Source: Xylella taiwanensis
Lineage (GTDB): Bacteria > Pseudomonadota > Gammaproteobacteria > Xanthomonadales > Xanthomonadaceae
Reading direction: 5' to 3'
Length of the DNA stretch: 32,000 bases
Assembly (NCBI RefSeq): GCF_013177435.1
Contig: NZ_CP053627.1
Coordinates: 2,792,878 to 2,824,877, forward strand
Under the pieces are notes generated by a model. It saw only the letters and a program-made list of their open reading frames with translations. It was not told the DNA's origin and did not search any database. Positions within the stretch are counted from its first letter, which is position 1; each line of letters opens with the position of its first letter. Made by a program: the position numbers and the translations under genes. Below are positions 12,449 to 32,000 of this stretch, piece after piece.

Positions 12449-12904
12449 ATGAAAAAGCAACAAGGTTTTAACTTGATCGAACTGATGATCGTGATTGCGA
12501 TCATTGCCATCCTGGCGGCCATTGCTCTGCCCATGTACCAGAATTATGTCGCCAGGGCTCAAGTCACGGCGGCACTGGCCGAGATTACGCCAGGCAGAGC
12601 ACAAGCCGAAGTCCGTATTACTGATGGAGTAGCTGCAACCAATCTTCCGAACGATATCGGTCTGCGCAACACCACCTCTCGTTGCGGCATTACCGTCACT
12701 ATCGATCCCGCTAAAACAAGTACAATCGTATGCACGATTATTGGCAATGCTCAGGTCAACGGTCAAACCATCACGTTGACTCGTACCCCCGATACAGCTG
12801 GAGGCAATGCTACTGGGGGTGTGTGGACTTGCACCACTAGCGTTGCTGCCGCGTTGAGACCAGCAGGCTGTACTGCTCCTGCTACTACTAGTACTGGTAC
12901 TTAA
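12449..12904 (+). CDS. pilA: Type IVa major pilin paralog a (151 aa)
   Basis: Class III signal [35 protein letters not shown] (Gly-1, Phe+1, Glu+5). Four Cys (79, 95, 128, 141), including a 12-residue C-terminal disulfide loop. AAAGG-type SD lies upstream. Confidence 0.93.
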
Positions 12905-12967
12905 CGTGGGCAGTAAGGCGATCAATGGCTAATATCCGCGTTCTCCTAACGTGATCAAATCAATGAG

Positions 12968-12990
12968 AAGCCCGCCTTCATGGCGGGCCT
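12968..12990 (+). terminator. GC-rich hairpin downstream of pilin a
   Basis: GCCCGCC-ttcat-GGCGGGC at 12970-12988, followed by a weak T tract. The same element recurs after pilin c. Confidence 0.55.
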
Positions 12991-14577
12991 TCCAGTAGTA
13001 ACCCTATAAGGTATCAGCGTTATACTAAGCTAACACTTTAAAACGGAATACTACTTTTAAAGGCACCTGAAGCTTTTTTATTCTGAATTATATTAATACA
13101 TGATAGATGGGATCTAACGAAGCATTCCTTTAAATTTAGATAAGTATTATTTTTGTGACTTTTTTCACACTCTTATCCAAAAAGAATCGCAAAAATATTT
13201 AGAATAAACTCTCTTTTTGTTCGCAATACCAATACTCATTCGATCCGAAAAAAGCAGTCACCCATCAATGAGCGTATCCGAAAGCATACAAGCCATTGAG
13301 GAGGGGCTATATCGGTGCTATTAAACATCAGCACACCACGCCATGTGGACGCTTAACAAATATAAATGAACCCCACCCTTCCATTAAGATTCCAAGAACA
13401 ATAAGTAATCAGCTGAAACACTCCATTTTGGTTCACGCGACATCCTAAAATTTATCCTTCTGCACCCTCATCCTCTATTCAGCATGGTGAAACACTTACC
13501 ATCTCCCCTCCAGGATGATTAGGAACGGGAGAAGTGGGATTTTCTCCCCACTTGAACGGATAAAAAGTCCATCGACACCTCCCATGTCACTCCCAATCAG
13601 ATCATCACCACACTCCAACAGGTCGAAAACCACGCACAGGTGACAACAACGATAGCGTCAGCAAACTCTCAGTTCAGCCACGTTCTACACCCCGCGCACC
13701 CCACCCAAGCAACATAGCTACTCGACCGAAGAAGTGGAATCGGTAACTTGAAAGATGTCGCCCAGATCCGACTCAACGCCCGCCTGCCTGATGAAAGAGA
13801 CGATGGCAAAAAATGGCGATGCCTACTCAACCTCGGAAAACAATCAAATGTGCCATTGACAACAATCAATCGCACCCGTTACAGCGTCGAGATCAATTAA
13901 AAACTGGTATCGCCATCAGGAAAAAATCAGCAAGCAAAATGACCAGAGTGCCAATGGATGAATACTCTTGACCACGGCTCACCAAATTGAAAATTGGAGC
14001 CATGTTGACTGCACCTTTATAACGTGAAGGAGAGAAGCCAGACATCACCGCGTCAAATGTATCTGCTCTACCTAAAGGTGAAGTTTGACACGCAGATCGA
14101 ACCTAAAATACGGATGATTTAGAAGAAATCCAGAACAGTGGGCAGCGCCTGAGACGCTGCGTCTAACATTGCGGATCGACTTCATGCACCTCCAGCTCGG
14201 CAACGCATGCTGCTTCCAGCGGTTCAACGTACTAGAAGACCGCAATCGCGAAAGCCTGGCAATCGGGTCACTATCCTCGGCCTGTACCACACATCTCCTG
14301 GGACAAATCATCCACTGATGCGGACATCGGGCCCCCGGCAGTCAAAGATAATCCGCCGAGAAAACGCCACGGAATACCTCTGAATGCTGGACATCTGAAA
14401 GCAACACAACGTCATCAAGCGCGACAAGCCCACCGTTACCGACAGTCGAAATTGGCCAGCACCTGTTTTACATCCATCGAACAAGAGTAAGACACCACAC
14501 CCTGCTACCTCTGGAGATACCGCCATCTGCACTCAGCCTCATCGCCTGCCCACGTAGCAGTCGACGTTAATCACCTC

Positions 14578-15309
14578 ATGCCACGATTGGAGCGACCGCT
14601 AAAAATCGGAAATGACACCACCCTGACCCCATCCCACCCATTGCATTCACATTTTGCTCCACCGATGCAGCCAGCGTTGCCAAAGCTCTTTCAATACAAC
14701 CGTCTCAGGCTATCACTCCTCCAGAATTCCTCTAGAAAACAGCGCTCTAACCTGCAAGAACATGCCCTCCAGGCACTGATAAATGTCCCCTGTGATCCCA
14801 AAGCATTGCAGTGACCTCAAAGTACACATCCTAGACGCAGCGATGCCCCATATGCCGCTTCGTTGGAACACAACAACAGCACGCGTGATCGCCGCGCAAC
14901 CTTCAGAGAAGCAAAGACAAGCAACCCCTTTTCGGGATCGAACCGCAGCTTGGGTTCAATACGCCCCCGGAAGCGAACATGTTACTGGCACTACATGCGA
15001 TCAGCACTCGAAAACGAACACACCGCAGTTGCCACGATTGGCAACATTGCGAGCCTGACCCAAACCTTTCATTGACCGCATCGTTGACAACAACAATAGG
15101 TTACCAAGGCCCCAAACACGGCGGTGGATCAACGCTGCACCCTCACCATACAGATAGGCATTGAGACTTCCCCTGAAGTGACCCTGTACGCCAGTGCCCA
15201 TGACCAAGTGCGTTCCATCGTTTCCCTGCACGTGCAGCACGCTGCACAAACAGGCAACTCAATCAAACGAAGGCAAGCGATTGTTATCAATGCTAACATA
15301 ACCCCTTGA
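14578..15309 (+). pseudogene. Decayed type IV pilin paralog (psi-pilin)
   Basis: One frame (frame 1) runs from ATG 14578 to 15309 with internal stops. I confirmed the stops at 14812-14814 and 15073-15075, and two more follow shortly after. Pilin-homologous blocks are retained: PALPKLFQYNRLRLS vs [27 protein letters not shown] vs [14 protein letters not shown], and QRCTLT...SPE vs WSCTT...SPT. It is flanked by a mutated sigma54 promoter copy (about 14490-14506) and a mutated terminator copy (15328-15348). Confidence 0.55.
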
Positions 15310-15526
15310 GAGGCGATATGCTCTGCCAAGCCGCCGTTTGATGGGGCCGTCCTCGAGATCCGTTGCCATCCCAGCAGCGGCATTATTTGGAACAATTCTC
15401 ATTTATTCCGTGACATGTGGAAAAATAACAGTAGATACTCACCTAATACAGCATTTTGCAAACACTCTCTCCCAAGAAACAATAGGAGTCACACATCAAA
15501 TTAATTATTGACTTTTATCTGATATT

Positions 15527-15542
15527 TGGCATGCCTCCTGCT
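15527..15542 (+). promoter_or_regulatory. Sigma54 (-24/-12) promoter of pilin b
   Basis: TGGCATgcctcCTGCT has GG and GC separated by exactly 10 nt, close to the consensus TGGCAC-N5-TTGCW. It lies 62 nt upstream of the ATG. A PilR (sigma54 activator) gene is in the same window. Confidence 0.7.
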
Positions 15543-15603
15543 TAACCCATCTTTTCAATACTGGACAAAATGTTCATTAACGCTAACAAAGGAAGGATTC
15601 ATC

Positions 15604-16146
15604 ATGAAACAGCAGGAAGGTTTTACTTTGATCGAACTGATGATCGTGATGGCGATCATTGCCATCCTGGCCACCATCGCTCTGCCCATGTACCAACATT
15701 ACGTCGCCAAATCTCAAGTCACGGCGGCACTGGCCGACATCACACCAGGCAAGACACAAACCGAGGCACGTATTGCCAATGGAATGCCGCGCACCATGCT
15801 TCCCAATGATCTTGATCTGCGTGCCACCACGACTCATTGCCATCACATTGATGTCATTGTCGATTCAACGAACACCTGGTTCAGAACCTGGGATTCGTTA
15901 AACCCTCGTCATTCCAGTTCCAGAATCACTTGTACGATTCATGGCAATGCTCAGGTCAACAATAAAATCATCGAATGGATGCGTCTCCCCGAAGTTCCGG
16001 ACTTCTCTATTGAGGGCGGCCTCTTTGATGACAATGACAATAATTTGAATGGGCAATGGTTCTGCCTCACCAACGTTGACAAAGCATTGAGACCCCCAGG
16101 CTGTGAGGACTCTTTACCCAGGATCTGGACGCCCCAGGGCTCGTGA
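15604..16146 (+). CDS. pilA: Type IVa pilin paralog b, divergent and enlarged (180 aa)
   Basis: [35 protein letters not shown] has an intact leader, Phe+1 and Glu+5. Four Cys (79, 110, 154, 167). SD GGAAGGA. The start is set at ATG 15604 inside track ORF 15526..16146. Confidence 0.85.
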
Positions 16147-16349: not shown

Positions 16350-16826
16350 ATGAAAAAGCAGGAAGGTTTTACTTTGATCGAGCTGATGATCGTGATTGCG
16401 ATCATTGCCATCCTGGCCGCTATCGCTCTGCCCATGTACCAGAATTATGTCGCCAGATCTCAAGTCGCGACGGCACTGGCCGACATCACACCAGGCAAGG
16501 TCCAAGCAGAGATTCTTTTTACTGACGCAAGGGGAACATCAGCCATCACTACTCCGGAAACTATCGGTCTGCGTACCTCTAGTACTCGTTGCAGTACCAT
16601 TGGTGTCAATATCACGCCAAGCACTGGCATTGGCGAAATAGCATGTACGATTATTGGCAATGCTCAGGTCAACGGTCAAACTATTAGATGGAATCGTAGC
16701 GCCGATAACGCCTCAGGCCAAGGTGGCACTAATAATGGTGGCTTGTGGAGCTGCACCACAAACGTTGCCGCAACGTTGAGCCCAACAACCTGCACTGTTA
16801 CTGCCGCTGCTGCTGGTTCTAAGTAA
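16350..16826 (+). CDS. pilA: Type IVa major pilin paralog c (158 aa)
   Basis: [35 protein letters not shown]. Four Cys (81, 99, 135, 148). SD AAGGA 9 nt upstream. Confidence 0.93.
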
Positions 16827-17198: not shown

Positions 17199-17573
17199 AT
17201 GCCGTCGATGTATAACCTGCACGGTCTCTCTTTCACCGGGGAAAGCATCAAAAAATCCGCTGGATTCAACTTGATCGCACCGCTGATTGTCATGGCGAAC
17301 ATGGCTCTCCTGACGGTTATCGGGTGCAGCCCTTATCAAACGTATATTGCCAAGATTCATATGGATGTCGCCCTGGCCAGCCTCCAAGCTGGAGAAACCA
17401 CCACCGAGACTCTCATCCAGAAACAGCAGCATGCCACCCCGATCGACGCGACGCATCCAGGTCCCCACACCACCCATTACGGCTCGTACGTTCAAGCACG
17501 CTTTGACAACACCGGTGCCGGTGCGATCATCTGCACACCCCCGGTAAACCGTTTTATCGATAATCTGACATGA
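17199..17573 (+). pseudogene. Degenerate pilin-like gene d (ancestral start codon and Glu+5 lost)
   Basis: IKKSAGFNLIAPLIVMANMALLTVIGCSPYQTYIAKIHMDVALASL aligns with [46 protein letters not shown]. The position homologous to the pilin ATG is ATC (17247-17249). Glu+5 and Leu+6 are Ala-Pro. There is no C-terminal disulfide loop, and I found no sigma54 promoter upstream. Confidence 0.6.
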
Positions 17574-24152: not shown

Positions 24153-25025
24153 ATGTCTGTACTAGTTAATAAAAATACGAAGGTGATCGTGCAGGGCTTT
24201 ACCGGTCAACAAGGGACCTTCCATGCCACTCAGATGGTGGAATACGGCACTCAAGTCGTCGGTGGTGTCACCCCTGGCAAGGGAGGCAATACCCATATCG
24301 GTCTGCCGGTATTCAACACTGTGCGTGAAGCCGTCGAGAACACAGGTGCTGACGCCTCGGTTATCTACGTACCACCACCGTTTGCAGCCGATGCGATTTT
24401 GGAAGCAGCTTCGGCAGGCATCAAAGTCATCGTGGCTATTACAGAAGGTATTCCGGTACTGGACATGCTGCGAGTTAAAAATGTACTTAAAGCGTATCCT
24501 GAAACCACATTGATCGGACCAAACTGCCCAGGTGTTATTACCCCAGGCGAATGTAAGATCGGGATCATGCCGGGCCATATCCACAAGCCAGGTCATATAG
24601 GTATTGTGTCGCGCTCTGGTACGTTGACTTACGAAGCTGTGAAACAAACTACTGACGTCGGCCTAGGTCAGTCAACCTGCATTGGTATCGGTGGCGATCC
24701 AATCAACGGTCTGAACTTCATTGATGCGCTAAAGCTGTTCAACAACGATCCACAGACCAGGGGTATCATCATGGTGGGGGAGATCGGCGGGGATGCCGAA
24801 GAAGCCGGCGCTGAGTACATCCAACAACATGTGAGCAAGCCAGTAGTTGGGTTTATCGCTGGTGCATCCGCACCGAAAGGCAAACGCATGGGCCATGCCG
24901 GTGCCATCGCTTCGGGGGGATCAGGGACAGCGGAAGGCAAGTTTACTGCGATGGAAAAAGCCGGCGTTAAGACTGTACGTTCACCAGGGGATTTGGGCGC
25001 GGCGATTGCTTTGTTGGTAAAGTAA
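24153..25025 (+). CDS. sucD: Succinyl-CoA synthetase alpha subunit
   Basis: [24 protein letters not shown]..., CoA-binding fold, and the active-site His context [17 protein letters not shown] upstream. Confidence 0.95.
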
Positions 25026-25284
25026 ACCACTCTGGAAAATTGCTTTCTCAAAGTTTTTCAAAAACATCCCAGTAGGTACAGCTTAAAACGGTTTAAGGTA
25101 AACGACGAGATCTCCGGAAACTCGGAGACCTAGTTGCTCTTGTCATATGCTGGCATTTAAGCATCTTCGATTTCCATCCCATCATCCAGGCACTACTTAT
25201 CAGTGTAAAGTACACACGGAATAATTACCGCACTTATACTCACCTATGCATTTATTATTAATAATGATCTCGATAGAATCCGAT

Positions 25285-26637
25285 TCACTTGCCAATACAG
25301 AAACTGGAAAAAATCCGCCCAAGTAGTTCATCAGGACTCATGCGCCCATTGATTTCACCCAGTGCGTGATAAGCCAAACGAAGTTCTTCTGCGGTCAATT
25401 CTAAATGTTCGTATGCGAACTGTGCATTGGCATCCACTACATGCGCAGCCGCACGTTGCAAAGCCTGCACATGGCGCAACCGTGCCGAAAATTCACCTTC
25501 GACCACTTCGGTCGCCTCGCCAAGCGCCAACGCACGCAGGCGTGCCTGCAATGTTTCCAGGCCAGCACCCGTCATTGCAGACACTGCGATCACATCTGAC
25601 CCTAATGCAGGCGGCTCCGCAAGCAAGTCAAGTTTGTTATGGATCCAAAGTACACGCGGCACTGAAGTAAGAGCATCTATCACCGTAGCACGGCCAATCT
25701 GCGGATTGCAGGCATCCAACACCACCAGTGCCAAGTCAGCACGCTGCAATTCGCTGAGGGTACGACGCATACCTTCGCGCTCAATTGCATCGCCCCCGTC
25801 ACGTAACCCAGCAGTGTCAACCAAAACAAACTCCAAGCCATCGAAATGCACACTCTCACGCAATGTGTCACGAGTCGTACCGGCAACATCGGTTACGATC
25901 GCACGCTCACTACCAATCAAAGCATTGAGTAGTGAACTTTTACCAACATTCGGAGGACCAACCAAAACGGTATATAGTCCATCGCAAAGACGCCTCCCAT
26001 GCTCAGCCTCTCGAAGTAACTGTGTCAGTTCAACACACAAGGTCTGTAATGCAGTACGTATCTGGACACCATCAAATGTATCCAGCGATTCATCGGCAAA
26101 GTCGATTGCTGCTTCAACGTGAATACGCAGCCTGACTAACTGTTCGGCTAATGCCTCGCAGCGCCGCGAAAAGACTCCATCCAGCGATCTGCGAGCAGCA
26201 CGAGCAGCACGCAAGTCACCAGCACCGATCAGATCGGCGATTGCCTCGGCTTGTATCAGATCAAATTTACCGTTGAGAAAGGCACGTTCACTAAATTCGC
26301 CGGGGCGGGCTTGCCGCGCTCCTAGCCTCACACATCGCATCAATAGCTGGCGTAGCAACAGCGGGCTGCCGTGCCCTTGCAACTCCAATACATCTTCGCC
26401 AGTGAAGCTATGTGGGGCAGGAAACCATAGCGCCAACCCATCATCAATGGCTTCATCATCGATATCGAGAAAACGTGTGTAATGTGCATGTCGTGGCCGT
26501 AACGTGGCAATACCTAGACCACTTGCAATATTTTTTATCAATGGACCAGAAACGCGCACTATCCCTATTCCAGCACTACCGGACGCGGTGGCAATCGCAG
26601 CGATGGTGTCGTTCAAATAGGCTGGGCACTGGCTCAT
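25285..26637 (-). CDS. mnmE: tRNA modification GTPase
   Basis: [23 protein letters not shown]-terminus, G1 [15 protein letters not shown]3 DTAGLR, and the canonical C-terminal FCIGK. Confidence 0.95.
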
Positions 26638-29348
26638 AATTTCGTCAGCTTCATACGCACCTGTTTCGCACCAGAACCTTGTGGTTGAAGATCCAAGTAA
26701 ATCGTATAAGCTTTTCGCGCTTTATCTTTATTGTTTAATCGCAAATAGACATCACCAAGATTTAGCTGTGCGACCGCACGTGAGGGATCTATTTTGAGCG
26801 TGTTCTCCAACCACCGTACAGCTTGTGCGTATTGTCCCTGACGAAAATACACAAAACCAAGATTATTAGCCGCCAGTGCAAAGTTTGGACGCAACTCCAG
26901 CGCCTCGGAAAATTTATCAGCAGCTTCCATATAACGCTTCTCTTTGTATAACTGCAACCCCAGATCATTTGCACGCTGAGCTAGCTGCCTTTTACTAAGC
27001 TTCCCAGTAGGAAGCAATGACAAAGTGGCCTCGCTAGCTTGTAGATTTTTGACTGTGGCTGATCTAAGCACAGTCGCATTTTGACGTACCTGTTTAGCAC
27101 CGAGTGTAGAGTTTGTGGACCCAACACGACGGTTCAAAGTAATCTTATCGACTAGTAACTGTGCTGTCTGACTCGTCAGAACTCCCTCACGCCTGGGTAT
27201 CTCGAACACAAATTCCCCCCCCTGTGAACCAGCCAAGTTACCGAATGTTGGGGTTTGTGCTGATACTGCCGACACCGCTGGCACCACGTATGCCGCCAAT
27301 TCAGTACCAGTGATCAATCCGTCATCATTAAAGTCAGCACGGCCAGACAACGCTTGCAATAACACCCAAGTGAAGACAGAATGGCCGTTGGGGCCTCTAT
27401 CAGTGACTGGCTGGTCAGCCGCACCAGCAGTGAGCATTTGACGACTCATTCGGTTATTACTCGTACGCCAGCGAGCACCAGTCTCTGTTTCCCCATGCGT
27501 GAAATCCAAACCGCTATAGCAAGCATCTATGACGAAGAGTACATTTTTAGCCTCAAAGTTCTTAGCGATGTTCTGTATTTCGGTCATTGAGATTGCATCA
27601 TCTGCAAAATTCGCTGGATTCGAATCAGCAGGAATGATATAATTCAAGTTTGGCCCGAAGGAGGGCCGACGTGTAGCGCCATGACCAGCAAAGAAGACAA
27701 ACAGACGATCATTTTTTTGTATACGACCATTAGCCAACTGACCGTTAAACGCAGCCAGAATTTTATCGCGAGTGGCCTCACGGTTCTTCAGTAAAATTAC
27801 TTGTGAAGATGGAAAGCCAAGCGATTCAATCAGCGTGTTGGCAATCGCATCAGCGTCGTTAGCTGCGTATTTCAATTTTGGCCACTTGATATAGTCATCG
27901 ACACCAATCACTGTTGCCCAAGAATGTATGGCGGTAGTTCCTCTCCCTGTATCATCGGTGTCGACCTTTATAGCTTGACTATGATTAACACTAAAGCCAT
28001 GGCCATCCCAACCAGCAAATTGGTAGCCATCAGCGATAAGTTGATCCAGGATCTGTGGTAGTGCTTTAACTGCACGGTCATGAATATCGTGAAACAAAAT
28101 GATGCCACGTTGTTTTTTAGCCACCTGCGCGAGTACACGCCGCACGACTGAATTTGGAACTGGATCGGCCCAGTCAAGCGAATCGATATTCCATCCCACT
28201 GATTTAAGGCCGATTTCAGCTAGCAACCGCAGCCCCTCAGCATTACGCGCACCATACGGGAAGCGGAATAGTGGTGCGCGCCTTTCATCCACTGCACGCA
28301 ACATTGTATCGGCATCCATCACCTCTCTACGAAGCGCTGTGCCACTAAGCTTAGACAACAGGTCATGGGTCATACTATGGTTACCAACGGCATAGCCTTG
28401 TTCCATTAGCTCGTGGCTAATTTTAGATAAGGGGCCTAGTCGCGGTTTTCCAGCCCTATCCAATCTGCCAAGATTGCGTCCAACCTCAAAGAACACCGCT
28501 GGTACAGCGTAGCGTTGTAAGATTGCCTTGATTTCATTGGTATAGACTCGGTGTGGGCCATCATCGAAAGTAAGTACTAGCGTTTTAAACGGTAATTCAT
28601 TACCAAACACTTCAAGTTCGCTTCCTTCGATTGATATCGGATCAGCTTCGATGACTGCATAATCACGCAAAATCATTTTACGTGTGTAAGAACGACGCAA
28701 ATACGCCATGTAGTCATCCCACTTTTCACGCTTAAGAACAATTCCTCGATTGTGATCAAAAGAATTAGATATCCGAGTAATTTCCTGGTTGTAGGTATGT
28801 TCAATCTGAGTTAGTGCATCCAGATCTTCATGAATACGTTGACGCAATTTTATTGCCGGAAGCGCCGAATCATGGCTAATACGAGCGTCAAGATCGTTTA
28901 GCGTTTCACGAAACGCTAAACGATCAGCATCATAGAGCTCAGGTGCGGATTCAATATAATCGAGCATTATTGTCAAAGTATCAAAACGGTTAACCGCACC
29001 AGAAGTAAGCAATGTATCAATTCGTTTAGAAAACGCGGCGCGTTGATTCAATCCTTCATTAAATAACATCTGCCCAACTTGAGTCGAAGTAACACGCTCC
29101 CGAGACGTATGTACATCATCATCCGTGAGAAGCACCATAATGCGGCGGTAATTCTCCAACTGTTGATGCAACGAGGCAAGAAGCGGCTTGAGATGCTGTG
29201 TATCAGGAGGATGTTTAACGTTAACTGAAATGGCAGCTATAGGTACTGCAGACTCGATAGGTGTCGATTGACGCTTACAAGCCACTAGCGTCAGAAATAT
29301 ACACAATTGCAGAAAGAAAGAACTGAACAGTGTAGTTTGATTACCCAT
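26634..29348 (-). CDS. 904-aa predicted lipoprotein: unknown helical region + CE4/NodB polysaccharide deacetylase + caspase-like (C14) protease with EF-hand loop + TPR repeats
   Basis: Lipobox LVAC (Cys24). NodB motifs TFDDGP (aa 260-265), GNHSMTH (322-328), FRFPYG (361-366), IDSLDWAD (388-395) and IILFHDIH (416-423). Caspase dyad FFAGHGA (His556) and VIDACYSG (Cys610). EF-hand loop [12 protein letters not shown] (672-683). TPR-like repeats at about aa 788-890. The stop overlaps the mnmE ATG (ATGA at 26634-26637). Confidence 0.85.
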
Positions 29349-29436
29349 GGGGGATCATATTTTATTAAGAAATAAGAAATTTAAGATATGAAAAATAAGA
29401 ACAATTAAGGAATAACCAGAGGAGTAAATATAATAC

Positions 29437-31128
29437 CTATTTAATGTTGGTCTTACCTCTTTTACGCGGAAAATCGGCATTTTGACGGATCATCCACCAC
29501 TGGATTAGCAAATTTAATCCGCCATTGATCACCCAATACAATGCTAAACCAGACGGTACAAAAGCCATCATCACACCAAAAATCAATGGCATCAGCTGCA
29601 TCATCCTTTCACTCATAGGATCCATACCAGCTGGAGTCGGAGTCAATTTCTGCGTCGTCCACATGATTGCTATGTTAAGAATCGGCAAGATAAAATAAGG
29701 ATCGCGCGTAGTCAGATCCTGGATCCAACCCAGCCAAGGCGCTTGACGCAACTCTACTGACTCAACCAATACCCAATACAACGCAAAAAAGATCGGCATC
29801 TGAATTACGATTGGTAAGCAGCCCCCCATAGGATTAATTTTTTCTTTCTTATACAGTTCCATCATCGCTTGCTGAAACTTTTGTCGATCCTCACCATAAC
29901 GTTCCTTAAGCTGCTGCAACCGCGGTTGAAACTTGCGCATCTTCGCTGCGGATTTATATTGGGCAGCACTTAACGGATACATGACAATACGAAGCAAAAC
30001 TACCAAACCTACAATCGCCCACCCCCAGTTATGCAAAAGACTGTTCAGGTGATTCAATATCCAAAACAAACCCTGACCAATCACTGCCATCAACTGAAAC
30101 CGACTGTAGTCAACAACGCGATCTAACCCCTTGACCTGTTCCTGAGCAATTTGGTCAACCAGCTTCGGACCCACCCACAATCGGGCTTCGGTGATTACAC
30201 TCTGCCCCGGCGCTACACTGAAAGCCGGCCCACGCAGCTCAGCTATGTCATGTGAACCATCCTGAGCTAATAAATACAATGATGCTTGATCTTTCTGTGG
30301 GATCCATGCAGTAAAAAAGTGATGTTGAAGCAGTGCGATCCAACCACCAACGATTTCTCGATTCAGGCCACCATCATCCATATAATCCTTAAATGCACGA
30401 CGTTCATAACCACCTTTCTCACTGTACCAAACAGCACCGTTAAAACTGAACGAATCTGGATTAGTCATCGAGCGATTTAAGATATTAGGTACCCGGCTCA
30501 ACTTGCGAAAGACATAAGCGCTCCAAGGTATCTCGCCACCATTATAAACCTCATCCTTAATTACGATCGCATAGCTGCCACGTTCAAAGCTAAAAGTTCG
30601 GCGGATACTGACTCCATTTGCAGCAGTCCAAATAAATGGCACCACTAAACGGTTCTGATTTTGAGCCAAGTTATATGAAACGCTTGGTTGCTCAGGACGA
30701 AAGGTGCTCAAACTAGGGACTGGAGAATTATTTTGGCTCATCCAACCACTAGTCGCACTGTAAGGATAGGATGGGTTATCGGTGAGCAATTTAACTGGCT
30801 GAGCAAGTCCATCTTTGCTTTGAGGAAAGCGTAACAAATCGGCAGAAAGTACACTAAATCCATCTAATTTTAGCTGTAGCACATCAGTTGTTACATTGAT
30901 CACAGGTACTCTTGGATCAGATGCAATTAATTGTGAGTTCTGTTGAAGCGGAACTGTAGATGCAGCTGCCTTAACTTGTGGCATTTCGTGTTCCACATTG
31001 CTGTGAACAGCAAAATTATGAGAAGCTGAAAATTCTAATGCCACGTTTTTATTTTTACCCCATTCCATACACAATAGTGTTGCTACTACTAGCCAGGAAA
31101 ATATCAGGAATACACGAGTCTGGTTCAT
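29437..31128 (-). CDS. yidC: Membrane protein insertase
   Basis: [27 protein letters not shown]1, a large periplasmic domain, and the conserved C-terminal core ([44 protein letters not shown]). The start is set at ATG 31126-31128 inside track ORF 29437..31221. Confidence 0.93.
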
Positions 31129-31171
31129 CAAGAAAAATTTCTCGGGCAGTCGGAACGGGGTTTTAATTTGT

Positions 31172-31630
31172 TTATTTACGGGAACACTTACTCTGGAAAA
31201 GCGGTGGCATTGTGTTATCAATTGCGGTTAAAGGCAATGCTCCGATGCGCCGTAATAATGACAAGAAAGCTATACACAAGTCAGCATTACTGACATTTCG
31301 GGCAGTCTGACGAACAACCACCACATAGTCACCTGGCACTAAATTAGAAGCAATTTGGCGCATGGTCTCACGGAGGACACGCTTGACCCGATTACGATTA
31401 ACTGCGCGTATATCAACCTTCCGAGAAACTACTAGACCCAAGCGAACTGGTCCGGAAGTTGGTCGATGGTGCAACCTCAATAGCATGCTACCCTTATGAC
31501 AGCCTTGCTTAAAGATCACAGAATATTCTGAACGCAAACAAACCCTAGCGGAACGAGGAAACCGCTTACGTGAATTTAATGTACCCACATGACAGAGACA
31601 AAATTGACTTTTAGCTGCGTGTGGCAGCAT
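31172..31630 (-). CDS. rnpA: RNase P protein component
   Basis: [18 protein letters not shown]...[26 protein letters not shown] is the RNR motif. It lies immediately downstream of rpmH. The start is ambiguous: ATG 31630, or 31645, which would overlap the rpmH stop. Confidence 0.85.
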
Positions 31631-31637
31631 ATAGTAA

Positions 31638-31778
31638 TTAAGCACTCAAACGCTTGCGGCCCTTAGCGCGACGGCGAGCTAGAATTTTACGGCCATCGGC
31701 AGTTGCCATCCGTACCCGAAAGCCGTGATCACGTTTACGCTTGAGATTACTAGGTTGGTATGTACGCTTGGTGGCCAT
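31638..31778 (-). CDS. rpmH: 50S ribosomal protein L34
   Basis: Hand translation of the minus strand gives [46 protein letters not shown] (46 aa), with a GGAGG SD 5 nt upstream. It falls below the size cut-off of the ORF track. Confidence 0.95.
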
Positions 31779-31824
31779 AGGCCCTCCATTTTACTCTATG
31801 ATCTGTGAAATTAAATCGGCTATC

Positions 31825-31855
31825 ATTGTACAAGAATTCATCAGATCCTTGTCAA
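31825..31855 (-). promoter_or_regulatory. Candidate sigma70 promoter of the rpmH operon
   Basis: On the minus strand, TTGACA (31850-31855) and TACAAT (31825-31830). The spacer is 19 nt, longer than optimal. It lies about 45 nt upstream of the rpmH ATG. Confidence 0.4.
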
Positions 31856-32000
31856 GGAGGCTTTTGTGAATGATCTCATGAATAAGTCTGGGAAAAATCC
31901 GCTTCCAATGATAGTCTGATATCCAATTTCATGATTCCCTGAGCTGCTTACACATCATCTTTGCTTAACGCTAAGCAGCCCATTACTGATGACAACATTG

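Follow-up and report, generated by a model that had tools for sequence, protein, structure and literature searches.

The 32,000-nucleotide stretch of the Xylella taiwanensis chromosome analyzed here (contig NZ_CP053627.1, positions 2,792,878 to 2,824,877; hereafter the window) contains a complete gene for a 904-residue protein, in which a lipoprotein-type signal peptide and a helical region are followed by a CE4 deacetylase domain, a caspase-like C14 protease domain and tetratricopeptide repeats (TPRs). In our reading, to which we assign a probability of about 55%, this protein would be a periplasm-facing, lipid-anchored, bifunctional envelope enzyme in which a peptidoglycan deacetylase is joined to a calcium-responsive protease. 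The protein is an ortholog of the known 'Xanthomonas-type metacaspase', and the gene, its architecture, its occurrence in Xylella and its operon were already known. What is new here is an argument from export against a role in cell death, the prediction of cleavage after Arg/Lys, an EF-hand-like loop, a module made up of the N-terminal region and the CE4 domain, a permuted fusion of the two halves, and a selection profile along the protein.

The deduced protein matches a public X. taiwanensis entry exactly (EWS79292.1 / Z9JNF7), which is found on 31 contigs and is annotated as a 'polysaccharide deacetylase family protein'. An in-frame stop lies three codons upstream of the ATG of the open reading frame (ORF), and therefore the N-terminus cannot be longer. 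An ORF of 904 codons with three significant domain matches is, on its sequence, clearly not a chance feature; the mass calculated for the mature product is 98.3 kDa. Compared with X. fastidiosa, the gene has an overall ratio of nonsynonymous to synonymous substitution rates (dN/dS) of 0.30, i.e., it is under purifying selection. The initial annotation of this DNA, made from the letters alone, had named the CE4, C14 and TPR domains, the intact catalytic motifs of both enzymes, an LVAC lipobox placing them outside the cytoplasm, and an N-terminal region that it could not assign. The searches bear this out: each domain is recovered by Pfam above its cut-off, the residue numbers of the motifs agree, the case for an extracytoplasmic location is strengthened by the distant homologs, and the N-terminal region still has no match, also after prediction of its structure.

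Residues 4-25 are the sole strongly hydrophobic stretch of the protein, with a core of mean hydropathy 2.06 in front of the LVAC lipobox, which fits the pattern [LVI][ASTVI][GAS]C. Cys24 is near-invariant in the alignment of the Xanthomonadaceae orthologs. A strict lipobox is present in 121 of the 156 full-length homologs, and the other N-termini that were inspected are either Sec signals or transmembrane anchors; likewise, none of the distant homologs lacks an export feature, each having a lipobox, a Sec signal or a membrane anchor at its N-terminus. As judged from these N-termini, the Xanthomonas-type metacaspase family is predicted to be consistently extracytoplasmic. For the X. taiwanensis protein itself, it is very probable that it is exported, lipid-anchored and facing the periplasm, the lipidation being indicated by the lipobox. 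The anchor would probably be in the outer membrane, because the residue at position +2 is Lys and not Asp.

The CE4 domain is matched by Pfam Polysacc_deac_1 over residues 251-383, with 82.8 bits (gathering cut-off 23.1). All five CE4 motifs occur at the expected spacing, namely TFDDG (260-264), HSMTH (324-328), RFPY (362-365), DSLDW (389-393) and LFH (418-420), and their catalytic and metal-binding residues are invariant in the ortholog alignment. The dN/dS of this domain relative to X. fastidiosa is 0.12, compared with 0.11 for the flanking mnmE and 0.13 for yidC. The best match in the PDB is PgdA of Streptococcus pneumoniae (2c1g, 6.9e-25), and the top relatives in the PDB and NCBIfam are mostly peptidoglycan deacetylases (PgdA, PdaB, PdaC, Bd3279 and Bacillus enzymes). 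Chitin- and xylan-active CE4 enzymes score near PgdA (ArCE4A, 5.9e-23; 7y51, 6.6e-24; 'xylanase/chitin deacetylase'). With the peptidoglycan deacetylases PgdA (2c1g), Bacillus subtilis PdaC, Bdellovibrio Bd3279 (5jp6) and Agrobacterium tumefaciens MdaA, the X. taiwanensis protein shares the NodB signature, the five motifs, the Asp-His-His metal site and a predicted action outside the cytoplasm; unlike in these enzymes, the deacetylase here shares its chain with a protease and TPRs and follows a family-specific helical region. Periplasmic peptidoglycan deacetylases are known in Gram-negative bacteria, namely MdaA (PMC10838918) and SddA, the level of which is set by a periplasmic protease (bioRxiv 10.1101/2025.02.18.638797). 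We tentatively suggest that the CE4 domain and the helical region together deacetylate an envelope amino-sugar glycan. Peptidoglycan would be the likeliest substrate, because no other polymer of this kind is shared by all hosts of the family and because no polysaccharide genes travel along with this gene.

In the AlphaFold2 models, residues 49-229 are predicted to be all-helical. When residues 25-250 were modeled with a more diverse alignment, the result was a helical bundle only, with a predicted local distance difference test score (pLDDT) of 80.4 and a predicted template modeling score (pTM) of 0.70. This region has no match among the Pfam families, and none in a profile comparison with the PDB (best E 0.86); a Foldseek search with the model returned only generic helical bundles (best E 0.38, TM-score at most 0.47). 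It is limited to the metacaspase family, where it is found directly before the CE4 domain or, rarely, as a stand-alone gene. Two-part proteins that consist of the N-terminal region and the CE4 domain also exist (about 420-476 residues; P0212, P0219, P0222, P0235, P0244 and P0255). We propose it as an obligate partner of the CE4 domain that serves either in regulation or in targeting the substrate.

The stand-alone version is a gene of 226 codons (P0140), present in two metagenome samples (L083, 6001-6681; L084, 1289-1969), where its neighbors are a response regulator and a phosphoglycerate mutase. Short matches to the N-terminal region on long contigs in two further loci, L081 and L082, which might have been taken for an unfused operon, were rejected, since both loci are long-read assemblies in which the fused gene itself is broken by frameshifts. 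In L082 frameshifts split dnaA, dnaN, yidC, mnmE and the metacaspase gene, and in L081 they split the metacaspase gene and several of its neighbors; through such frameshifts, protein databases come to contain 'stand-alone' domain proteins that are spurious.

The protease domain is matched by Pfam Peptidase_C14 over residues 476-672, with 71.3 bits (cut-off 21.4). Its catalytic motifs are FAGHG (553-557), with His556, and DACYSG (608-613), with Cys610, and the dyad is invariant in the ortholog alignment. When a profile of the family was compared with the PDB, the structures recovered were those of the metacaspases Yca1 (2e-11), AtMC4 (4.3e-11) and TbMCA2 (2e-6) and of the paracaspase MALT1 (6.5e-5), with AtMC9 also matched; no chain of an animal caspase was found at E < 0.1. 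Nor does the active-site motif, DACYSG, correspond to the QACxG motif of animal caspases, which have a basic S1 pocket. The His556/Cys610 dyad aligns with those of Yca1 and AtMC4, and two aspartates, D498 in an 'ND' motif and D608 two positions before the Cys, are conserved. In metacaspases, the Asp of the 'ND' motif and that two positions before the Cys line an acidic S1 pocket. This acidic S1 pocket, together with the kinship to metacaspases, leads us to predict specificity for Arg/Lys and not for DEVD-type sites, and the protease probably cuts after these residues; orthocaspases, too, cleave after basic residues (PMC6426788). The dN/dS of the C14 domain relative to X. fastidiosa is 0.23. 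From the state of their motifs, there is good reason to expect that both catalytic domains, CE4 and C14, are active.

In comparison with metacaspases and orthocaspases (Yca1, 4f6o; AtMC4, 6w8s; TbMCA2, 4af8; and the cyanobacterial enzymes), the His-Gly and Asp-x-Cys-x-Ser-Gly motifs align. Unlike those enzymes, the X. taiwanensis protein is predicted to be periplasmic and lipid-anchored, and an EF-hand-like loop replaces the classical calcium site; relative to the solved metacaspase structures, only the p20 half aligns confidently. The loop was defined by the pattern Dx[DNS]x[DNSG]Gx[ILV]xxx[ED], which is expected by chance in 0.65% of random 900-residue sequences. It occurs in 152 of 156 full-length homologs and in 26 of 41 caspase-only homologs, 25 of these having it 62-70 residues after the Cys. 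The corresponding segment of the family profile matches EF-hand proteins (CML18, 6.9e-5; EhCaBP, 2e-4). In the X. taiwanensis protein itself there is no match to a Pfam EF-hand model, and the local confidence of the structural model is low there. The protease may be calcium-responsive via this loop. The loop is an unreported detail, in that we found no description of it for the Xanthomonas-type metacaspase family.

The C14 domain is followed by a linker (residues 719-785) that is only 45% identical to that of X. fastidiosa, with a dN/dS of 0.66. Beyond it, the Pfam models TPR_1, TPR_2 and TPR_11 recognize three repeats at about 790-890, with 54-57 bits, above their gathering cut-offs. The TPR block is modeled as seven helices with pLDDT values of 83-92, and its dN/dS relative to X. 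fastidiosa is 0.41. These repeats are weakly similar to those of NlpI and BepA. The pairing of NlpI with Prc, BepA, and the degradation of SddA by Prc are instances of TPR-guided periplasmic proteolysis in the control of the cell wall. As in NlpI-Prc, BepA and SddA/Prc, a TPR module and a protease would here come together at the outer membrane or in the periplasm; unlike in NlpI-Prc and BepA, the protease is a clan CD cysteine enzyme instead of a serine or metalloprotease, and the modules form one fused chain, so that the analogy is a functional one only.

The TPR module has diverged within Xylella. None of three X. fastidiosa orthologs (P0166, P0169 and P0001) is matched by a Pfam TPR model at E <= 0.001, whereas the X. 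taiwanensis protein is. Moreover, the TPR block of X. taiwanensis is 71% identical to that of Xanthomonas and 57-63% identical to that of X. fastidiosa, the opposite of what is seen for all other domains. These values point to an accelerated divergence, or a decay, of the module on the X. fastidiosa branch.

The N-terminal region plus CE4 domain, and the caspase domain plus TPRs, also occur as separate proteins. In addition, one protein from a Candidatus Tectomicrobia metagenome-assembled genome (MAG) has the caspase domain first, then DUF4384, and then the N-terminal region and the CE4 domain (P0232; MBI4640712.1, 1031 residues, partial). This second, independent fusion in the reverse order argues for a functional link between the halves. 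The calculated masses of the two halves of the X. taiwanensis protein are 50.2 and 48.1 kDa, and the variable linker between them (residues 456-473) contains Arg and Lys; the protease may also cut there, although we regard this as less likely than not.

In the mechanism that we propose, the protein would be exported by the Sec pathway, lipidated at Cys24 and anchored so as to face the periplasm, probably at the outer membrane. The metal-dependent CE4 domain would remove acetyl groups from an envelope amino-sugar glycan, most likely peptidoglycan, on either its N-acetylglucosamine (GlcNAc) or its N-acetylmuramic acid (MurNAc) residues, while the helical N-terminal region would assist it by regulation or by substrate targeting. 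The metacaspase-type cysteine protease, with its acidic S1 pocket, would cut after Arg/Lys, under a calcium control suggested by the EF-hand-like loop, and the three TPRs would serve as a docking site for protein partners or substrates. Self-cleavage of the linker between the two halves, if it occurs, would separate the protein into fragments of about 50 and 48 kDa. The data show the gene itself, its domains and motifs, their conservation, the synteny, purifying selection and membership in the family; localization, substrate, P1 specificity, calcium control and autoprocessing are all features that we infer from anatomy and conservation.

Several observations weigh against this interpretation. 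In the signal peptide of X. taiwanensis, residues 1-6, before the hydrophobic core, include no Lys or Arg, whereas the orthologs have one. Similarity within the CE4 family does not separate peptidoglycan from chitooligosaccharide or acetylxylan as the substrate, and the equivalog cut-offs of NCBIfam are not reached (97-107 bits, versus 237-800). The full-length AlphaFold2 model, based on 18 orthologs, has a mean pLDDT of 56.7 and a pTM of 0.32; being too poor for a fold search or an analysis of domain packing, it served only to assign secondary structure and to view the TPR block. Lastly, the role published for the Xanthomonas ortholog is an intracellular one, caspase-3-like and PARP-like (PMC3501461), and in the literature on the function of the family we found no biochemical or genetic data beyond antibody-based work.

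The family was described by Asplund-Samuelsson et al. (2012; PLoS One 7:e49888, PMC3501461), who defined the 'Xanthomonas-type metacaspase' as a PF01522 domain with a metacaspase domain and one to three TPRs. They listed this architecture, with a conserved His/Cys dyad, in Xanthomonas, Xylella, Stenotrophomonas and two Acidobacteria, and described an operon with trmE that in Xylella is predicted to extend to rnpA and yidC. The X. taiwanensis protein has the same order of domains (PF01522, metacaspase with the dyad, TPRs), the same size (about 98 kDa, for a test range of 97-100), the same operon, including rnpA and yidC, and 60-74% identity over the full length. The X. fastidiosa orthologs (AAF85564.1 / AAO29939.1), which are found in all subspecies, are 74% identical. 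The 2012 description makes no mention of an export signal, a helical region at the N-terminus or the EF-hand-like loop. The view of the initial annotation that this is an orphan, with no characterized protein of the same architecture, does not hold: the exact protein is public, relatives are encoded in hundreds of species, and the architecture is described in PMC3501461. The family has thus turned out to be a common one and, to a large degree, an already characterized one, with a thin biochemistry.

A large protein search returned 2046 matches, the best 120 of which are all full-length, with about 890 residues and 60-74% identity, and come from Xanthomonas and Stenotrophomonas. When one genome of each species was scanned, at least 592 were found to encode a relative; Pseudoxanthomonas, Lysobacter and many Betaproteobacteria are among the matches listed. 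The betaproteobacterial proteins (from Thiobacillus, Polaromonas, Janthinobacterium, Noviherbaspirillum and Rhodocyclaceae) are 53-62% identical over their full length, and among 1.84 billion cluster representatives searched exhaustively with HMMER, about 25 clusters have all four parts, the lowest identity being 37%. The gene has been kept under purifying selection in the quarantine pathogens X. fastidiosa and X. taiwanensis, whose genomes are reduced, and in the opportunist Stenotrophomonas maltophilia; given these pathogens, a role in cell-wall remodeling, if true, would be of practical interest.

Some database records need separate mention. An assembly labeled Nocardiopsis yanglingensis (L016) contains a Stenotrophomonas-type rnpA-yidC-X-mnmE locus (X being the metacaspase gene), with coordinates and identities like those of S. 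maltophilia loci, and this actinomycete-labeled assembly is probably contaminated. Two Azonexus MAGs (L046 and L049), a Desulfobulbus MAG (L048) and a betaproteobacterial MAG (L056) carry the gene without yidC or mnmE as flanks. The identity of L046, L048 and L056 is at the Stenotrophomonas level of 62%, and that of L049 is 60%; the first three are either misbinned contigs or recent transfers. The genes called 'polysaccharide deacetylase' in PMC3715506 (Smal_2717) and PMC2810307 are different genes. XCC4239, a candidate for the ortholog, appears in the literature by name only, as a CE4 gene.

The Xanthomonas-type metacaspase is the 'caspase' most often cited for bacterial programmed cell death. 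According to that proposal, the protein is an executioner that is 'caspase-3-like' and activated by metabolic stress in rich medium, with a PARP-like deacetylase part and intracellular targets. The ortholog of X. campestris pv. glycines (GI 88792532) has been tied to programmed cell death tentatively (PMC3501461). As far as the work of Gautam & Sharma (2002) and Raju et al. (2007) is summarized there, this protein cross-reacts with anti-caspase-3 and anti-PARP antibodies, caspase-like activity is increased in 'rapid cell death', and an active species of 55 kDa is observed, close to the fragments of 50.2 and 48.1 kDa predicted here. Later papers of the same line still depend on a human caspase-3 antibody and on DEVD-type assays, and we found no knockout evidence in the literature. 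The export signals conserved throughout the family would place the enzyme outside the cytoplasm, away from the proposed targets. Its acidic S1 pocket and its nearest structures, which are Arg/Lys-specific metacaspases and a paracaspase, with no caspase at E < 0.1, do not fit a caspase-3-like activity, and no PARP family is found among the 22 Pfam matches at E <= 1. Purifying selection in a reduced Xylella genome and the presence of the gene in free-living Betaproteobacteria suggest a routine role in the envelope. Taken together, the export signal, the acidic S1 pocket, the EF-hand-like loop and the helical partner argue for a periplasmic protease specific for basic residues, in conflict with the caspase-3/PARP reading, and we consider an intracellular executioner improbable. 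A version of this idea in which cells die by periplasmic autolysis is possible.

The initial annotation had pointed to PgaB/PgaA and PelA/PelB, in which a periplasmic deacetylase is likewise found with TPRs, and had proposed a modifying enzyme for an envelope glycan, either exopolysaccharide or peptidoglycan. Of these two substrates it is peptidoglycan that we tentatively favor, as set out above; the analogy to the exopolysaccharide pairs is weak. On the exopolysaccharide reading, a secreted biofilm polymer would be the substrate of the CE4 domain, and the TPRs would couple the deacetylase to the export machinery. The combination of CE4 and TPRs, the extracytoplasmic location and a weak similarity of the TPRs to the lipoproteins PrsT, PilW and Tgl are consistent with it. 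The equivalog models for PgaB, however, give only 23.3 bits (cut-off 321.9) and 21.5 bits (cut-off 923), and cover only about 45 residues. In PgaB/PgaA and PelA/PelB, the TPRs are part of an outer-membrane porin and the genes belong to a synthase operon, whereas the X. taiwanensis system has neither porin nor synthase, and its three TPRs come without a beta-barrel. The absence of glycosyltransferase and polysaccharide-export genes that had been remarked upon for the vicinity is confirmed for the whole 32-kb window and extends across the family: no synthase, porin or export gene adjoins the metacaspase gene in any of 80 loci, and in the 11 betaproteobacterial loci, where the gene is sited elsewhere, there is no conserved neighbor of any kind. 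As the hosts of the family also have very different exopolysaccharides, we regard this role as quite improbable.

A third possibility is that of a surface-exposed or released lipoprotein acting on the host, which would deacetylate chitin oligomers, as in the insect foregut, or fragments of peptidoglycan that have been shed, and so blunt immunity mediated by LysM receptors, with the protease attacking host proteins. Chitin-active enzymes are indeed among the best PDB matches of the CE4 domain (see the values for ArCE4A and 7y51 above), and the hosts of the gene include plant pathogens and a vector-borne pathogen. The family is, however, equally present in Stenotrophomonas, Lysobacter, Thiobacillus, Polaromonas and Janthinobacterium from soil and water, the gene sits in a housekeeping operon, and nothing that we found points to surface exposure or secretion; we judge this very improbable.

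A more speculative mechanism would have the CE4 domain unmask a free amine on an envelope glycan, as glucosamine or muramic acid in peptidoglycan, to which the clan CD peptidase, acting as a transpeptidase instead of a hydrolase, would join the newly made C-terminus of a protein recruited by the TPRs. Analogous clan CD transamidases are PorU of type IX secretion, GPI8 and the legumain ligases, and the reverse-order fusion in P0232 fits the functional coupling that this mechanism implies. If true, it would be a new form of covalent tethering between proteins and the cell wall in Gram-negative bacteria; it appears far-fetched to us. An anti-phage or conflict system was rejected, in that PADLOC reports a generic 'caspase' domain match only, the model for EACC1-type caspases gives 76.4 bits where 140 are required, and there are no partner genes.

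The coordinates of the gene, of the parts of its product and of other features of the window are collected in the following table.

Features of the gene for the deacetylase-metacaspase-TPR lipoprotein and of its surroundings, in window coordinates
Feature	Position	Strand	Basis or detail
Deacetylase-metacaspase-TPR lipoprotein gene, complete	26634..29348	minus	904 aa, ATG start; EWS79292.1 / UniProt Z9JNF7
Signal peptide with lipobox L21-V-A-C24 (aa 1-24)	29277..29348	minus	regular expression and hydropathy; +2 residue Lys
Family-specific all-helical region (aa 49-235), predicted	28644..29204	minus	conserved motifs including KREKWDDY; AlphaFold2, no Pfam match
CE4/NodB deacetylase domain (aa 250-455)	27984..28601	minus	Pfam, PDB profile, motifs, dN/dS
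CE4 residues			D262 catalytic base; D263/H324/H328 metal ligands; R362; D389/W393; H420
Caspase-like C14 (metacaspase/orthocaspase) domain (aa 474-718)	27195..27929	minus	His556, Cys610; acidic S1 D498, D608
EF-hand-like 12-residue loop (aa 672-683)	27300..27335	minus	regular expression; 64 residues after Cys610
Poorly conserved linker (aa 719-785), mostly disordered, with two short conserved strands	26994..27194	minus	pLDDT < 50
Three TPRs and capping helix (aa 786-904)	26637..26993	minus	Pfam TPR_1, TPR_2, TPR_11
ATGA overlap, stop of metacaspase gene / start of mnmE	26634..26637	minus	read from sequence and ORF coordinates
mnmE (trmE), downstream operon gene	25285..26637	minus	exact match to X. 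taiwanensis MnmE; conserved synteny
yidC and rnpA, upstream genes of conserved rnpA-yidC-X-mnmE block	29437..31645	minus	tblastn synteny across Xanthomonadaceae-type loci
Type IV pilin paralogs and degenerate pilin-like ORF	12449-12904, 15526-16146, 16350-16826, 17199-17573	plus	

The ATGA overlap with mnmE indicates translational coupling of the two genes. In the 88-nucleotide gap between yidC and the metacaspase gene, signals for a promoter or a terminator are not above the shuffled expectation (scan of 25000-32000). In the Xanthomonadaceae-type loci in which the flanks are present, tblastn shows the order rnpA-yidC-X-mnmE, X being the metacaspase gene. Within the Xanthomonadaceae, the gene is vertically inherited as part of this block beside the replication origin. 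That the gene lies beside yidC and mnmE appears to reflect inheritance of its position rather than a shared function. In two loci, from Stenotrophomonas koreensis (L067) and a Stenotrophomonas MAG (L072), the order is yidC-mnmE-X and not yidC-X-mnmE, i.e., the gene can be separated from its usual place between yidC and mnmE.

The ORF assigned to yidC in the window (29437-31221, minus strand) has a TTG start and 594 codons, and overlaps the rnpA ORF (31172-31645, minus strand) by 50 nucleotides. YidC of X. fastidiosa is called at 565 residues, and the true start of yidC in X. taiwanensis is probably about 29 codons downstream.

The other genes of the window are a type IV pilus cluster, coaE, a two-component system, rimK and sucCD, and its SucC also matches an X. 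taiwanensis protein exactly. Scans of the window for Rfam families and tRNAs found nothing. Between positions 1 and 5400, no complete ORF of more than 124 residues is listed, in a list that omits ORFs running off the end of the window; this suggests either a pseudogenized region or a very long gene that crosses the window end. From about 12900 to 15500, between pilin paralogs, some 2.6 kb contain no ORF of more than 91 residues, and the G+C content falls to 0.43 at 13-14 kb; this stretch may be the remnant of a lost or mobile gene. Between pilC and pilB there are three paralogous type IV pilin genes, all on the plus strand, whose N-methylation motifs are intact; a fourth ORF, with the degenerate motif GFNLIAPLIVMANMALL, is possibly a decaying pilin.

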